From IMG/VR virus record IMGVR_UViG_2681813225_000019: a stretch of DNA of 12,878 bases, one strand, 5' to 3'. The translations under genes and the position numbers were made by a program. A model generated the notes under the pieces. The model ran no database searches and was not told where the DNA came from. It saw nothing but the letters and a program-made list of their open reading frames with translations. This document shows positions 3,158 to 12,878 of this stretch, one piece after another; within the stretch, counting starts at the first letter, position 1; the number at the start of each line of letters is the position of its first letter. Source of the stretch: a virus. Lineage: Duplodnaviria; Heunggongvirae; Uroviricota; Caudoviricetes.

Positions 3158-4003
3158 TCACATTATGCCCATGAAGCCATGTACGCCCATATACACACCG
3201 ACTAAGCCAATCAACAGACTGGAAAAATAGGGGGCGCGTTTAGCGAGAGTGTTAAATCCGCTCCAGCGTTTTGCGACCTGCTGAACGCTGATTGCTGCGC
3301 CAACGCCTACGGTGACAAGCGTTAACGCCAGGCCAATGCTGAAACTGACGACCAGTGTTGCGCCCAGTGTCAGGGCTTTCAACTGAATGCATATCAATAG
3401 CACGGTAATTGCTGCCGGGCAGGGGATAAGGCCACCGGTTAAGCCAAATAACAAAATTTGCCAGTTGGTGACCTCTCTACCATCAAAGCGTCGTTTAATG
3501 TCATTGGCATGGGCTCGTGCATGGGCATCCTGATACTCGCCATGTTCGTGATGGTGATGATGTCCATGGTCGTGGTGATGTTCGTGGTCTTGATGATGTT
3601 CGTGATCGTGATGATGGTGATGATGCTCATAATCATACTCGTGCATATTCTCCAGCCAGTTGCGTTCGCCGCGCCAGGTACGCCAGAACATCCAGAACGC
3701 GGTGCCAATAATGATCACTGCGGAAATCAGCTGGAGCCACGGTTCTGCTGATTGAGCAGTAAAGCGCTTGCTGATCACCATCCCGCCAAAGGCAATTAAC
3801 CAGACCACTGCGGTATGCGAAATAGTTGCTGCCAGTCCGAGCATTACCGCTTGTTTAATGGTGCCTTTGATGGCGATGATAAACGCCGCCATCATCGTTT
3901 TTGAGTGCCCTGGTTCCAGGCCATGAAGCGCACCAAGTAAGATGGCGCTGGGGATGAAGAACCAGGCGTTTCCTTGCTGAAGAAGAGTTGTAAATTCGGT
4001 CAT
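3158..4003 (-). CDS. rcnA: Nickel/cobalt efflux transporter RcnA with histidine-rich cytoplasmic loop (281 aa)
   Basis: Membrane protein with an internal His-rich stretch (EHHHHHHDHEHHQDHEHHHDHGHHHHHEH) encoded by repetitive CAT/CAC-rich DNA around 3530-3650; divergent from rcnR with RcnR operator motifs in between. Confidence 0.92.
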   Translation of the reverse strand: MTEFTTLLQQGNAWFFIPSAILLGALHGLEPGHSKTMMAAFIIAIKGTIKQAVMLGLAATISHTAVVWLIAFGGMVISKRFTAQSAEPWLQLISAVIIIGTAFWMFWRTWRGERNWLENMHEYDYEHHHHHHDHEHHQDHEHHHDHGHHHHHEHGEYQDAHARAHANDIKRRFDGREVTNWQILLFGLTGGLIPCPAAITVLLICIQLKALTLGATLVVSFSIGLALTLVTVGVGAAISVQQVAKRWSGFNTLAKRAPYFSSLLIGLVGVYMGVHGFMGIM

Positions 4004-7032: not shown

Positions 7033-7143
7033 AGGGGGGCATATGACACATAAAACAAAGGCGACCGCAGAGGGCCGCCAGTGGCATAACACTAAACTTG
7101 AGCATATCCAGAATACCAGGTTGTTGGCTGGTGGGCAATGCAA

Positions 7144-7320
7144 TCAGTCTGGTTCAGTTCGTTGCCATAACTGCGAAGCTCTCTCCTTTGATGAGTATTC
7201 TTTAAGGTACTTCTCAAGGGCAAAAGAACACGGCGCGAATCGTTCTGATTCATGCTCTTTCTTTCTGAGTCGTCTTTTTCGTGCAGGTGATGTTTTTTTG
7301 GTTGATTCTTCGTTGGTCAT
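7144..7320 (-). CDS. Possible small basic protein, 58 aa (below the cut-off of the supplied ORF track)
   Basis: Hand-translated minus-strand ORF, ATG at 7320 to TGA at 7146-7144: MTNEESTKKTSPARKRRLRKKEHESERFAPCSFALEKYLKEYSSKERASQLWQRTEPD. It lies 57 nt downstream of the RHH-like gene. No clear SD, so this is weakly supported. Confidence 0.3.
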   Translation of the reverse strand: MTNEESTKKTSPARKRRLRKKEHESERFAPCSFALEKYLKEYSSKERASQLWQRTEPD

Positions 7321-7377
7321 TGTGTGCGCCTGTAAAGCAATGCGCCGTAGTACCTCACACCACGGCGCTGGTGATGG

Positions 7378-7557
7378 TTACTCCTGCTCTTTGGCCTTGC
7401 GGCGCTGGCGGCGTTTGATTTCGCCTTTAACGGCAGTAACTATAAATTGCGCTTTGCTTTCACCTTCATCTAAATTTTTTTCTAAGTCTGCAACAACATC
7501 ATGCGGGAATCTGGCATTTAACTGTTGCGACTTATTATTTGTTGAACCTGTTGCCAT
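7378..7557 (-). CDS. Ribbon-helix-helix (CopG/Arc-like) small DNA-binding protein, 59 aa; candidate island repressor
   Basis: Minus-strand ORF from the internal ATG at 7557 (SD GAGAGGA upstream): MATGSTNNKSQQLNARFPHDVVADLEKNLDEGESKAQFIVTAVKGEIKRRQRRKAKEQE. The pattern fits an RHH fold (strand QLNARFP, then two helices). The 114-aa extension in the ORF track is not protein-like. Divergent from the replication operon. Confidence 0.55.
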   Translation of the reverse strand: MATGSTNNKSQQLNARFPHDVVADLEKNLDEGESKAQFIVTAVKGEIKRRQRRKAKEQE

Positions 7558-8904: not shown

Positions 8905-9204
8905 ATGAAACTTAAATATCCTGGCTTAACTGACAGCGGCAAAACTCGCACTAAATTCATGCGCGGGGATATTTACCGCGACCAGTACGGCGGCACGGTA
9001 ATGATTAAGGGCGTGGAGGAACGGCGCGTAACCTACCATCGTGAAGGCTACGAATATGATTGCGTGATGCCTGTTTATCAGTTCCGGCGTGATTTTTCTC
9101 TGGTACAGGCAGCGCCCCGCAGTAAACCAACCAGCAGGGAGAAAGCACGCGCCAATATTCAGGAAATAAAAAAGATGCTTAACGTATTCAGGGGTAAGAA
9201 ATGA
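8905..9204 (+). CDS. Hypothetical protein, 99 aa
   Basis: ATG at 8905 following the upstream stop at 8897-8899; its stop overlaps the start of the replication gene (ATGA at 9201-9204). Confidence 0.65.
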   Translation: MKLKYPGLTDSGKTRTKFMRGDIYRDQYGGTVMIKGVEERRVTYHREGYEYDCVMPVYQFRRDFSLVQAAPRSKPTSREKARANIQEIKKMLNVFRGKK

Positions 9205-11333
9205 AACTGGCACCGAACGTAAAAAAACAGCCACGCGGAATAAAACACAAAGACACAGAGGTAATTATTTTCGCGGGTAGTGATGCCTGGTCGCACGCGA
9301 AACAATGGCAGGAGCAGGATGGCCCCGCATCCGGCGATAATGTTCCGCCTGTGTGGCTTGGGCCAAATCAGCTTGCCGAACTTGATGCGCTGAAAATTGT
9401 TCCGGATGGAAAAAAACGCGTAAGGCTGTACCAGGCCGGAGAACTGGATTTGGTGGAGACCAAAAAGATTGGTCAGAAGCTGGCGGCGGCAGATATTCAG
9501 GACGCAAATTTTTACCCCGAAGGAATGCACGGTCAGAAGGTGGAGAACTGGCGCGAATATCTGGCCCGTGAGCGGCAGAATCTTTCTGATGGTCTGGTTA
9601 TTGAGTTTCCGGTAAAGAAAAAAGATACCGGAAGCCATAGCGATGACGAATTAAAGCCACGCGTTGAAAGTCGCGCCGATGGTGTTTTCTGGGTAACGCC
9701 CAAAGTGGATAAGCAGTCAGGCGAAATTATCCGGCCTGAGACGTGGTTATGTTCTCCGCTTGAACTACTGGGAACGGGGACGATCGGTAAAGAGCATTAC
9801 CGCGTGATGCGCTGGAAAAAAACCGCAAACCATAAAGTCATCACAATGGCGATCCCGTGTGGTGGTATCGGCGACCGTGACGGCTGGCGGTTACTTAAAG
9901 ATCACGGGCTGAACGTGACAACCAACGGCAAATACAGGGCAATCCTGGCGGACTGGATGCAGTTAAGCGGAAGCCATGAGGAATGGCAGTTAAGCACAAC
10001 AACGGGCTGGCATTTTGGCGCGTACATCATGCCGGACGGTTCGATCATTGGTGAATCTGAAAAACCGATCCTGTTTACCGGAAAAAGCGCCGCGATTAAC
10101 GGTTATTCCGTGGCGGGCACGGCGGATGGCTGGCGCGACAGCGTGGCGCGGCTGGCTGGCGGTAATGCCTCAATGATACTGGGTGTGGCAACGTCACTGG
10201 CAGCGCCTTTAATTGGCCTTGTGGGTGCTGACGGCTTCGGGGTGCATCTTTTCGAACAGTCATCGGCAGGTAAGACCACCACGCAGAACATCGCATCAAG
10301 TTTATGGGGAGAGCCGGACGCGCAGCGGCTGACCTGGTACGGCACGGCGTTAGGTATTGCCAATGAGGCCGAGGCCCATAATGACGGGCTTTTACCACTG
10401 GATGAGATAGGCCAGGCCGGAAATGCGCGGGAAGTGTCAACGTCTGCTTATACGCTGTTTAACGGTTCAGGGAAATTGCAGGGGGCGAAGGATGGCGGCA
10501 ACAGGGAGATCAAACACTGGCGAACGGTGGCAATCAGCACCGGAGAAATGGACGTTGAGACATTCCTCAAAAGTGAGGGGATAAAAGTTAAGGCGGGGCA
10601 GCTTGTCCGACTGCTTAACGTTCCGATGGAAAAAGCCACGAAATTTCACGAATACAGCAACGGTAAGGAACATGCTGACGCGTTAAAGGATGCCTGGACA
10701 GCAAATCACGGGGCGGCGGGTCGTGAGTGGGTTAAATGGCTGGCAGGCCACCAGCAGGAGGCAAAGGACACGGTAAGGGAATGCCGCGAACGGTGGCGCA
10801 ACCTGATACCGGAGAGTTACGGCGAGCAGGTCCACCGCGTGGGTGAACGTTTCGCCATACTGGAGGCCGCGCTTGTGCTTTCCGGTCATGTAACTGGCTG
10901 GGTCGTGCAGGAATGCCGCGACGCGATACAGCATAACTTTAATGCCTGGGTGAAGGAGTTCGGCACAGGTAACAGGGAATTTAAACAGATGGTTGAACAG
11001 GCTGAGGCGTTTTTGTCGTCGTTTGGGTTTAGCCGCTACCTTCCGTACCCCAATACAGATGAGCGTGATTTACCGATTAAAGAGCTTGCCGGATACAGAA
11101 AAGGGAGCATTCGCAACGAAGATGACGAGATGCGCTATTACACGTTCCCGCACGTGTTTGAGAGTGAGATAGCGAAGGGATTTAATCCGGCGCATTTTGC
11201 GCGTGCCCTGGATGCTGCCGGAATGCTGGAGAAGGGAAGCGATCGCCGATACAAAAAAAAGGCGCTGGGCAAGATTGGGGGTAAGCAGCATGTTTTTTAC
11301 GTGCTGATGTTCCAGCCTGATGATGAAGATTAA
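9201..11333 (+). CDS. Island replication protein, 710 aa: primase/helicase-like with a central P-loop NTPase (DUF927-type, family assignment from memory)
   Basis: Large ORF translationally coupled to upstream genes. Walker A-like SSAGKTT and Walker B-like LLPLDEIG present. Immediately followed by an iteron array, the arrangement seen in satellite/PICI replication modules. Confidence 0.88.
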   Translation: MKLAPNVKKQPRGIKHKDTEVIIFAGSDAWSHAKQWQEQDGPASGDNVPPVWLGPNQLAELDALKIVPDGKKRVRLYQAGELDLVETKKIGQKLAAADIQDANFYPEGMHGQKVENWREYLARERQNLSDGLVIEFPVKKKDTGSHSDDELKPRVESRADGVFWVTPKVDKQSGEIIRPETWLCSPLELLGTGTIGKEHYRVMRWKKTANHKVITMAIPCGGIGDRDGWRLLKDHGLNVTTNGKYRAILADWMQLSGSHEEWQLSTTTGWHFGAYIMPDGSIIGESEKPILFTGKSAAINGYSVAGTADGWRDSVARLAGGNASMILGVATSLAAPLIGLVGADGFGVHLFEQSSAGKTTTQNIASSLWGEPDAQRLTWYGTALGIANEAEAHNDGLLPLDEIGQAGNAREVSTSAYTLFNGSGKLQGAKDGGNREIKHWRTVAISTGEMDVETFLKSEGIKVKAGQLVRLLNVPMEKATKFHEYSNGKEHADALKDAWTANHGAAGREWVKWLAGHQQEAKDTVRECRERWRNLIPESYGEQVHRVGERFAILEAALVLSGHVTGWVVQECRDAIQHNFNAWVKEFGTGNREFKQMVEQAEAFLSSFGFSRYLPYPNTDERDLPIKELAGYRKGSIRNEDDEMRYYTFPHVFESEIAKGFNPAHFARALDAAGMLEKGSDRRYKKKALGKIGGKQHVFYVLMFQPDDED

Positions 11334-11355
11334 TCCCCTGTGTGAGGAAAAAAAT

Positions 11356-11671
11356 TGCGGGTTATGCGGGTTATCCTGTGTATAAGTGTATTAAGCGCAT
11401 GAATATAAAGGAAATCAATAACCCGCACGTAACCCGCAAAAGGGCATTTATAACCCGCAAAAGCACGATTATAACCCGCAGGCGAATAACTGAAGTAACA
11501 CCGGACAGTCATGCGTAACCCGCAGAAAAAACCCCGTTTGCGGGTTATTTTGAGCATTTTGCGGGTTATGTGGTGAGCAAATAATAAACAGGGCGTTTTG
11601 CAACATGCTGATATAAAAGGATAAAAAATGGTTAGCACGCTAAGATAACCCAATAACCCGCATAACCCGCA
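11356..11671. repeat. Iteron array; putative origin of replication of the island
   Basis: TAACCCGCA at 11419, 11430, 11451, 11472, 11516, 11654 and 11663; inverted copy TGCGGGTTA at 11356, 11365, 11539 and 11560. Spacings of 9, 11, 21, 21 and 21 bp approximate helical-turn multiples. An AT-rich tract (ATATATATATAAATT, about 11681-11695) follows. Confidence 0.75.
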
Positions 11672-11705
11672 CATGTTTCTATATATATATAAATTGAGGT
11701 GGCAA

Positions 11706-11957
11706 ATGACCAGAACACGCAGAGACAGAACAGAGCCGAAATATAAAGCGTTAGATATAACAGAGCTGGCCTTAAAGGTGGCAATCAGAACGATAGACCG
11801 ACATGTAGGGGAAGGATACGCGAAGGAACATCCCGACCTGATAAGCGCATTCATGACCACAGCAGCGGCAAACTTTGCCACGTTGACAGAACGGGAGATT
11901 GCCGAAGCGGAACAGGTAACAACCATCAACGTTAAAACCGGAGAGCAGACAGCATGA
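11706..11957 (+). CDS. Hypothetical protein, 83 aa (start chosen at the internal ATG with GAGGTGG SD)
   Basis: ATG at 11706 preceded by GAGGTGG (11694-11700); stop overlaps the start of the SSB-like gene (ATGA at 11954-11957). The longer start at 11673 lies in the AT-rich origin tract. Confidence 0.6.
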   Translation: MTRTRRDRTEPKYKALDITELALKVAIRTIDRHVGEGYAKEHPDLISAFMTTAAANFATLTEREIAEAEQVTTINVKTGEQTA

Positions 11958-12364
11958 CAGCACAGATAGCGGCTTACGGGCGGCTGGTGGACGACCCGCA
12001 GGTAAAACAGACCAGCAAGGGAACACCGATGACGCTGGCGCGTATGGCGGTATCGCTGCCATGCAGCCAGGCACATGACGGACAGGCGACGTTATGGTTA
12101 TCGGTTATCGCATTTGGCAAACAGGCCGATTTCCTGGCTAAACATCAAAAAGGCGATGTTGCCAGCGTATCCGGCACGATGCAGGTAAGCCAGTGGACCG
12201 GACAGAACGGGGAAACGCGGCGGGGGTATCAGGTTATTGCAGACAGCGTAATCAGTGCCCGTGCGGCACGTCCTGGCGGGAACAGACGCAAGACCACAGG
12301 CACACAGGGTAATCAGCCACCAGCGGAAGGCGATGACCCTTACGGTGATGATATTCCGTTCTGA
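11954..12364 (+). CDS. ssb: Single-stranded DNA-binding protein-like (OB fold, acidic C-terminal tail), 136 aa
   Basis: SSB-like layout: IAAYGRLVDDPQVKQTSKG, W...V.AFGKQADFLAKHQKGDVASVSGTMQVSQWTGQNGETRRGYQVIAD, Gly/Pro/Gln-rich linker and C-terminal DDIPF, the SSB protein-interaction tip. Confidence 0.85.
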   Translation: MTAQIAAYGRLVDDPQVKQTSKGTPMTLARMAVSLPCSQAHDGQATLWLSVIAFGKQADFLAKHQKGDVASVSGTMQVSQWTGQNGETRRGYQVIADSVISARAARPGGNRRKTTGTQGNQPPAEGDDPYGDDIPF

Positions 12365-12376
12365 GGGGTGGGGACG

Positions 12377-12649
12377 ATGGTACATGACCGCATAGCGGAA
12401 GAACTGGAGGCGAAAGGCTTTTACCGGAGAGCGTCGGCGCGATGGGGTGAAGTCATGCAACTGGTGGAGACAGACAAGGAACGGCATCACATCACGATGC
12501 GACGGCTGGAATGTTCCAGGAAGGCACAGAGGCCACCGGAGCCGCCGGATAATTACGGAGACCTGAAAAAGGCGGTCGATCGCACTTATGCCGAAATGGG
12601 TATGGATGGTGCTGGTGATGAAATATGGCGAAATTACCAGGACAGATAA
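12377..12649 (+). CDS. PerC-family transcriptional regulator-like protein, about 90 aa (alternative GTG start at 12368)
   Basis: MVHDRIAEELEAKGFYRRASARWGEVM... resembles the N-terminal region of PerC/Pch-type regulators, as recalled from memory. ATG at 12377 preceded by GAGGGGTGGGGA. Confidence 0.7.
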   Translation: MVHDRIAEELEAKGFYRRASARWGEVMQLVETDKERHHITMRRLECSRKAQRPPEPPDNYGDLKKAVDRTYAEMGMDGAGDEIWRNYQDR

Positions 12650-12678: not shown

Positions 12679-12878
12679 TCATGTTTTGTAAATTATTTGT
12701 TCGTGGTTGTTCCACGTTGTTCACTGAGCGGATCGGCATATTTTACCCGAACTGAATCATGATTATTCTCGCCCGTGGTGCCAGGACGCTGGGGCCACTT
12801 TCCCGCCTGTTAATGTTCTCGCCAATATTCATTACCAGGCGGGAAAACGAACGGTGCGATTGCTGATTTCCTTATGAA

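Follow-up and report, generated by a model that had tools for sequence, protein, structure and literature searches.

The 12,878-nucleotide stretch of the virus record IMGVR_UViG_2681813225_000019 (the window, i.e., the whole stretch that was analysed) contains an array of short repeats at positions 11356–11671, directly downstream of a gene (pri-rep) for a primase–helicase initiator, Rep. This array is very probably the vegetative replication origin (oriPICI) served by that same Rep in a capsid-forming phage-inducible chromosomal island (PICI). The anatomy of the array, its conservation and the covariation of its repeats (iterons) with the Rep C-terminus were observed directly. A first-pass annotation had proposed an origin read by the adjacent initiator, and this is supported at the sequence level by its position, its co-occurrence with Rep, a layout that is kept while the motif changes, the C-terminal specificity of Rep and the constraint on the iterons. 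The same annotation took the array as one origin; the origin reading stands but the single unit does not, since two separable modules, I and II, were found instead (Table 1).

Eleven exact copies of the 9-bp motif TAACCCGCA or its complement TGCGGGTTA lie within 11356–11671, starting at 11356, 11365, 11539 and 11560 on the minus strand and at 11419, 11430, 11451, 11472, 11516, 11654 and 11663 on the plus strand. The exact-copy map bears out the motif, the eleven copies and the four blocks of opposite orientation described before, which are, in order, two minus, five plus, two minus and two plus. The first iteron begins 23 nt past the TAA stop codon (11331–11333) of pri-rep, and no perfect copy of either form was found outside the array in the entire window. 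With up to one mismatch, the window has 13 matches to TAACCCGCA compared with a mean of 3.3 in dinucleotide shuffles, none of 200 shuffles reaching 13.

Centre-to-centre spacings are 9, 54, 11, 21, 21, 44, 23, 21, 94 and 9 bp. The Rayleigh statistic peaks at 10.7 bp (R = 0.78), the best among periods of 5–25 bp, with a p of about 0.008 relative to random non-overlapping placement. The helical phasing claimed for the array is therefore real, but looser than the multiples of 10.5 bp first given, as seen from this peak and from the 9-bp pairs that fall outside it. The AT-rich tract said to follow the array is present at 11673–11697 and is the least stable 25-mer in the window (−22.9 kcal/mol, 99.98th percentile).

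Arrays of this kind are not restricted to the window. A protein-guided scan of one genome per bacterial species gave 21 loci with Rep relatives of 55–74% identity, in Escherichia albertii, Winslowiella, Cedecea, Serratia, Rahnella, Pantoea, Citrobacter, Yersinia, Pectobacterium and Tenebrionibacter among others (loci are given L numbers below). The rep stop and the downstream DNA were readable in 20 of them, while L029 ends at a contig edge. The search for the 9-mer in related islands, which had been suggested as a check, found arrays at the same place in all 20 readable loci, with 4–12 copies of a repeat of about 9 bp at most 450 bp from the rep stop. The motif itself is lineage-specific and may be TAACCCAC, CTTGTCCCA, CTTATCCCA, TGAACCACG, TGAACCAAC or TGAACCGnn. 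A Shigella locus (L031) has a different Rep type and TGTCTACC iterons. In the phage database, only one 67-bp match to the array was obtained, in an unannotated 2.2-kb record, so the array is absent from the helper phages of that collection.

The shared layout starts with two tandem inverted copies at about +25 and +34 from the rep stop, followed by four direct copies spaced 11, 21 and 21 bp. Then come a lone direct copy and inverted copies 23–24 bp and a further 21 bp away, and the array ends with an AT-rich spacer of 52–94 bp, two or three tandem direct copies 9 bp apart and a (G)TTTTGTTTATATATA-type tract. The offsets of 11, 21, 21, 23–24, 21 and 9 bp are kept in 11 contiguous arrays of the TAACCC, TGAACCAAC and TGAACCACG classes, and the best period in the range of 8–13 bp is 10.4–10.8 bp in all 11 contiguous arrays, covering four iteron classes. 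As judged from these alignments, the layout is constant while the 9-mer changes across Enterobacterales. Nearly all TAACCC, TGAACCAAC and TGAACCACG arrays shown have the (G)TTTTGTTTATATATA-type tract after their final tandem iterons, in a weaker form in L016 and L024.

Rep residues 171–438 match Pfam DUF927 (E = 1.4e-48), and the protein belongs to PHROG 1139, DNA primase (E = 1e-185). Its closest solved relatives by sequence are 8tch, a staphylococcal pathogenicity-island protein deposited as 'Pathogenicity island protein' (E = 2.4e-12), and 5dgk, 'Active helicase' (E = 0.0025), which we take to be Cch. Rep also matches Cch1 of NCBIfam weakly.

Seven iteron classes track the class of the Rep C-terminal domain. 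Over residues 610–710, pairs of Rep proteins with the same iteron share a mean identity of 77.5% (minimum 62), whereas pairs with different iterons share 44% (maximum 70). Over residues 300–600, identity is alike in both groups (75.5 for the same iteron, 72.6 for different ones). In these comparisons, it is the last ~100 residues of Rep alone that track the iteron class; the helicase core does not. The Rep of E. albertii L011, with 92% identity over 300–600, 39% over 610–710 and a different iteron, is by sequence a natural domain swap. The C-terminal ~100 residues are probably a winged helix.

The other end of Rep points to exchange as well. Three E. coli PICI initiators that are unrelated in the rest of the protein, two of P4-alpha-like types and one of a 'helicase RepA family' type, resemble Rep at 42–87% identity over the N-terminal ~125–160 residues (window 9201–9690). 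Islands of E. coli that show synteny elsewhere but have only this N-terminal part of Rep in common carry rep-proximal iterons of their own, TGTCTACC, TGTTCACC and AAAGTGAGG. Even among proteins of the same type as the window Rep (referred to as Rep-A), the N-terminal region is a mosaic with 28–100% identity per 50-residue block. Such a pattern indicates cassette-like recombination just inside the rep gene.

A BLAST count of co-occurrence in 5,426 complete E. coli genomes placed the sequence coding for the Rep C-terminal domain in 252 genomes, at 263 places, and module I gave exactly the same two numbers. There were 300 genomes with module II and 301 with either module, by which some 251 of the 252 genomes with Rep-A carry module II too; this figure is approximate, since separate BLAST queries differ in sensitivity. 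Among diverged E. coli copies of module I, 1 of 54 iteron columns is variable versus 36 of 111 other columns (p = 1.8e-6). For module II, the values are 10 of 36 versus 71 of 129 (p = 0.0046), and two orphan copies, described below, account for all ten variable iteron columns. In the aligned copies, the iterons are constrained while the spacers diverge.

The arrangement corresponds to that published for PICIs and staphylococcal pathogenicity islands (SaPIs), in which the iterons lie directly 3' of rep in two opposite sets around an AT-rich region (PMC6092414, PMC9371898), with at least two iterons on each side in opposite directions as the criterion for a SaPI origin (PMC9371898). Here the array lies directly 3' of pri-rep, at 23 nt, and likewise in the 20 readable relatives; module I has two minus copies, 45 bp and four plus copies, and module II two minus copies, 85 bp and two plus copies. 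The initiator is a DUF927, superfamily-3-like helicase with a primase match and a match to 8tch. Initiator alleles and iterons are also matched, as seen in the seven iteron classes and in three other E. coli Rep alleles with iterons of their own. In SaPI Reps, which are self-loading hexameric helicases, a C-terminal winged helix binds the iterons just downstream of rep, and these Reps bind and melt the origin without ATP (PMC9371898), while a pri-rep-ori clone of the E. coli island EcCICFT073 replicates (PMC6092414).

By homology with the SaPI Reps and with pri-rep-ori replication of EcCICFT073, the following course is proposed. The induced island would make Pri-Rep, a DUF927 self-loading helicase fused to a primase, whose C-terminal ~100 residues (~610–710), probably a winged helix, would read the 9-bp TAACCCGCA iterons. 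Each module would present diverging iteron sets around an AT-rich spacer, with the copies roughly on one helix face (~10.6 bp). Rep oligomers on the iterons would melt neighbouring AT-rich DNA, the (TA)n tract at 11673–11697 being the weakest duplex; the helicase would then load itself and the primase domain would start synthesis.

The island itself was identified through nearly identical records. The replication region of the window (9201–12000, 2.8 kb) is 100% identical to E. coli O157:H7 SS TX 754-1 and 97% identical to the prophage-like element Sp7 of E. coli O157:H7 Sakai and to the EDL933 element. In the SS TX 754-1 record, the island sits in tqsA and carries capsid, protease, portal, connectors, HNH, TerS and TerL genes downstream; Sakai Sp7 has the same gene set. 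Capsid-forming PICIs are taken as islands of 10–18 kb with int, regulators, a replication module and their own capsid, portal, HNH, TerS and TerL and with no tail or lysis genes. The integrase, the regulators and the replication module were found in the window, and the capsid and terminase genes in the identical record and in Sp7. The island is a capsid-forming PICI of the EcCIEDL933/Sakai Sp7 type, inserted in tqsA of E. coli O157:H7. The Sp7/EDL933 element is the model capsid-forming PICI EcCIEDL933, which replicates upon helper induction (bioRxiv 10.1101/2022.09.08.507074, with replication given in the legend of Fig. S3).

The division into two modules appeared when the 373-bp intergenic region was used in BLAST, since its two halves are also found separately. 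Module I always adjoins rep. The two modules form one contiguous array in about 141 E. coli genomes, among them the window, Sakai, L002 and L003; in the Rep-A islands L010, L034 and L035, module II lies 8–11 kb off, at the right end of the island, and ssb comes directly after module I. Split modules also occur in other genera and iteron classes, at 2.3 kb in L011 (distal module II downstream, past ssb, proQ and perC), 2.2 kb in L028, 4.8 kb in L025 and 6.2 kb in L022. The inspected Rep-A loci have one module II each, either proximal or distal, as would be expected if it were a required, position-independent part of the replicon. By analogy with crr and ori of satellite P4, both modules are probably needed in cis, and their adjacency would be unnecessary.

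Cargo was observed between the split modules. Serratia L028 has a MazF/PemK toxin (12204–12638), and Serratia L025 has Dit-like, baseplate-hub-like and gpV-spike-like tail genes (11904–15027), a gene type unusual for a satellite-like island. In Serratia L022 (12088–15271), the open reading frames (ORFs) match those of L025, judged by order and length alone. The space between modules I and II resembles a hotspot for insertions.

Several observations weigh against the array being an origin of Rep. Rep binding, melting, helicase loading and replication are carried over from SaPI Rep and EcCICFT073 by homology. The two 9-bp tandem iteron pairs do not fit strict helical phasing, and the stretch that melts may be any of several AT-rich ones. 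The helix-turn-helix (HTH) match of the Rep C-terminus, Pfam HTH_56 (Cch HTH), reaches 24.1 bits (E = 3.9e-5) with a gathering score of 26.2, and it was below threshold in every member of the C-terminal domain family scored. An AlphaFold2 model of this domain from a 14-sequence alignment had a predicted local distance difference test (pLDDT) of 54, and the profile of the same alignment gave no match among PDB sequences. In addition, about 49 E. coli genomes have module II without module I or the Rep-A C-terminal domain, and islands whose Rep proteins are unrelated can also carry module II. Some copies, at least, are therefore kept in the absence of their cognate initiator.

Four such orphan TAACCCGCA copies of module II were located at island right ends (Table 1), all in PICIs that have their own complete origins and an initiator of the P4-alpha-like or RepA-helicase type. 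Two of the four have lesions (one substituted iteron, one deleted tandem copy), compared with none of seven cognate copies. This fits young relics left after replacement of the rep cassette by recombination, although the numbers are small and the copies may have a function. Right-end copies of module II, cognate or orphan, have a conserved block about 80 bp downstream, which in L006 (3215–3251, equivalent to L008 ~20832–20868) includes 37 bp identical to the cos site annotated in phage phiP27 (CCGCCCCGTCAAATTTTTACACCCGCGAAATTAAAAA). Blocks similar to it are found in L009, L010 and L032–L035. Because of this match, the origin module and a probable packaging site are regarded as neighbours in right-end islands.

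The position of module II about 80 bp from cos in many islands is the reason for considering that it is linked to packaging. More generally, there is a limited chance that the two modules differ in job, one being the true start and the other a cis enhancer or a copy-control (handcuffing) site comparable to P4 crr or the inc iterons of plasmids. A division of tasks would agree with modules 2–11 kb apart in many relatives, with one module II per inspected Rep-A locus and genome counts near one per Rep-A copy, with the 37-bp phiP27 cos match after right-end module II copies, and with P4, in which crr adjoins alpha, ori is 4.7 kb off and the repeat is common to both. However, each module alone has the minimal SaPI-type layout of diverging iterons around an AT-rich spacer (PMC9371898). 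As for packaging, module II of the window island is far from the right end, and neither the window nor the full islands L001 and L036 gave a BLAST match to the cos-like block. Moreover, the module II iterons match the Rep C-terminal class and not the terminase; L009, L034 and L035 share a TerS protein accession, yet their rep-proximal iterons differ. A bipartite origin acting over 2–11 kb, i.e., a P4-like design that arose in a SaPI-Rep-type replicon, with the orphan module II copies as functional handles, is unlikely. If true, a capsid-forming PICI with Rep-A would replicate the orphan-bearing islands in trans, or these islands would titrate its Rep; either would amount to satellite-on-satellite exploitation or incompatibility.

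Initiators of iteron replicons often autoregulate, and the last tandem pair with the (TA)n tract lies 35–50 bp upstream of the start codon at 11706 and its GAGG ribosome-binding site. It was thus considered whether the repeats act mainly as transcriptional operators of the ssb-perC-capsid operon, bound by Rep or another island protein. This is improbable, since no sigma-70 consensus promoter was found in a scan of 11250–11800, distal module II copies keep the (G)TTTTGTTTATATATA-type (TA)n tract without a gene behind them, and the array is downstream of rep, not upstream. Covariation with the C-terminal domain of a helicase initiator and the published PICI origin assays favour an origin. That the repeats are integrase/excisionase arm sites or a cos/pac packaging site is hardly credible, even though module II elsewhere lies near attR and beside cos-like sequence. 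The window array is mid-island, about 5.4 kb from int; the same 9-mer is found in islands at dinD, clpS, yifB, hpt and tqsA; the attL and attR flanks share another repeat (TTGTTC and GGTGTAGT units); and the 9-mer follows the Rep C-terminus. Arm sites and cos/pac were rejected on this mid-island position, independence of the integration site and covariation with Rep.

The Rep-cognate origin thus read is of the PICI/SaPI type and not a new class, because such origins have been published for Gram-negative PICIs and SaPIs (PMC6092414, PMC9371898). It shares with SaPI1, SaPIbov1, SaPI5 and EcCICFT073 the 6–12 short iterons, the DUF927/SaPI-Rep-type self-loading helicase and, as judged by covariation, the C-terminal origin specificity. 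It differs in iterons of 9 bp instead of the 5–6 bp of SaPIs, in having two complete iteron/AT units in tandem with a separable module II, and in belonging to an element that makes its own capsids.

The P4 repeat TGTTCACC given in the first-pass annotation agrees with the annotated P4 record, where it is the type 1 repeat of ori and crr. Its remark that the replicon is not simply P4-type also holds, since BLASTP gave no similarity between P4 alpha and Rep at E ≤ 1e-3 and P4 has another repeat. Neither an alpha-type initiator nor the type 1 repeat is present here, and TAACCCGCA does not occur in P4. Both are E. coli phage satellites with a fused primase–helicase that binds short repeats via its C-terminal part, by analogy also in Rep, and crr directly 3' of alpha with a distant ori parallels module I with a distal module II. 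In P4 the two cis elements are separate and both required, while in the window the clusters are contiguous and only in relatives are they 2–11 kb apart. P4-alpha-like Reps are found in the E. coli PICIs L008, L009 and L033, of which L009 and L033 use TGTTCACC; Rep alleles B and C match P4 alpha at 41–49% in BLASTP.

Iteron plasmids (pPS10, F, R6K, P1, RK2) have phased initiator-binding repeats beside an AT-rich unwinding region, and extra iteron clusters in them can act in copy control. The helically phased repeats adjoining an AT-rich region are the likeness; the plasmids differ in direct repeats of 17–22 bp, a non-helicase winged-helix Rep and dependence on host DnaA/DnaB. Here the iterons are of 9 bp and in both orientations, the initiator is a helicase–primase, and a lone DnaA box is not conserved beyond the TAACCC class. 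The Cch/Cch2 MCM-like helicases of the staphylococcal cassette chromosome SCCmec have the DUF927 core in common with Rep, and the Cch HTH is the closest Pfam match for the Rep C-terminus, but the similarity is distant. We know of no iteron origin with this layout described for SCC elements.

A full-text literature search for the 9-mer gave no relevant paper. In the PMC6092414 supplement, the EDL933/Sakai element appears as a candidate only ('PIC1?'), with no iteron sequence, and two capsid-forming PICI papers (including bioRxiv 10.1101/2022.09.08.507074) contain no description of the origin. In the searchable text, the TAACCCGCA iteron with its specificity group, the two-module layout across classes and the separability and orphans of module II are undescribed, though Fig. 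2a of PMC6092414 may show such an origin. The basic conclusion is as expected from published PICI biology, and the bipartite/orphan aspect is the one worth following. The results give a base-level origin and a likely specificity domain for the model family of capsid-forming PICIs (EcCIEDL933-like), elements that move genes between species. Seven iteron classes in one fixed layout, together with a natural domain swap, offer a system for the recognition code of self-loading helicase initiators, with a possible use in building orthogonal replicons. The separable module II and its orphans near cos suggest ideas on recombination of satellite replication cassettes and on cross-replication or competition of co-resident islands.

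Table 1. Features of the replication region and orphan module II copies (window positions unless a locus is named).
Feature	Positions	Strand	Description
pri-rep	9201–11333	+	710-aa primase–helicase initiator, DUF927 core, here 'RepA-type' (Rep-A)
Putative iteron-specificity domain	11028–11330	+	Rep residues ~610–710, by covariation with iteron class
Post-stop motif	11334–11347	+	TCCCCTGTGTGAGG, directly after the rep stop
Origin module I	11356–11480		Two tandem minus copies, 45-bp spacer, four plus copies (11419, 11430, 11451, 11472; spacing 11, 21, 21 bp)
Spacer I	11374–11418		45 bp, AT-rich, 31% GC
DnaA box	11377–11385	−	Perfect consensus TTATACACA, within spacer I
Origin module II	11516–11697		Lone plus copy (11516), two minus copies, spacer, two tandem plus copies, TTTC(TA)n tract
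Spacer II	11569–11653		85 bp, AT-rich, 36% GC, conserved non-iteron motifs
Degenerate motif	11646–11653		TAACCCAA, inside spacer II
Candidate DNA-unwinding element	11673–11697		ATGTTTCTATATATATATAAATTGA, right after the last tandem iterons
PHROG 1231 small protein	11706–11957	+	
SSB	11954–12364	+	
PerC/PchE-like activator	12368–12649	+	
Orphan module II	L008 20599–20753		TAACCCGCA copy, right end
Orphan module II	L009 17831–17985		TAACCCGCA copy, right end
Orphan module II	L033 13983–14127		TAACCCGCA copy, right end
Orphan module II	L032 13983–14136		TAACCCGCA copy, right end

Upstream of pri-rep, the window contains an integrase, an Ash-like regulator and a DUF4222 gene. The downstream gene calls (Table 1) agree with the RefSeq annotation of the 100%-identical record. 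Just past the PerC-like gene, at 12690–12730, three TTGTTC-N4 units with a 10-bp period were observed (TTTGTTCGTGGTTGTTCCACGTTGTTCAC). TTGTTC-like repeats followed by GGTGTAGT(C/T)A doublets are found at the attL and attR flanks of related islands, and the same TTGTTC/GGTGTAGT repeats occur at the right end of the window island itself (L036 ~22960–23030). L034 and L009 have a further mid-island copy of the TTGTTC type upstream of the capsid operon. These repeats may be integrase arm-type sites that have taken on a regulatory role mid-island.

Some smaller elements of the origin were also noted. A (C)TGTGTGAGG-like post-stop motif is present in most arrays of other iteron classes, across genera, and in all E. 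coli copies; its conservation is independent of the iteron sequence. The perfect DnaA box of spacer I (chance expectation about 0.018 per 400 bp) is retained in E. coli TAACCCGCA origins, has one mismatch in Tenebrionibacter L027 and is absent from other iteron classes. Since it is conserved only within the TAACCC class, it is not a feature of the family. Neither an IHF consensus nor GATC was found within the origin, and an Rfam scan gave a chance-level match only. The RNA hairpin predicted at 11506–11572 (z = −4.4) was rejected as mere iteron complementarity, and two terminator-like matches on the minus strand of 11250–11800 were by-products of the inverted iterons. An antisense ORF of 248 residues (11330–12076, minus strand) spans the whole origin and the downstream gene and has no RefSeq annotation in the identical record, while RefSeq does list a similar 'hypothetical protein' antisense to module II in NZ_CP126940 (L005 2955–3710). 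The antisense ORF of the window is probably spurious.

In Yersinia pekkanenii L021, there are three TGAACCAAC arrays (7137–7396, 11719–11978 and from 12873) and the rep match is spread over 2.85 kb, which points to either a duplication of the rep-ori region or an interruption of rep. The origin of E. coli NZ_CP148314 (L003 ~3312–3362) has three extra tandem 8-bp TAACCCGC units (24 bp) before the final TAACCCGCA pair, which suggests slippage-type copy-number variation in the tandem block.

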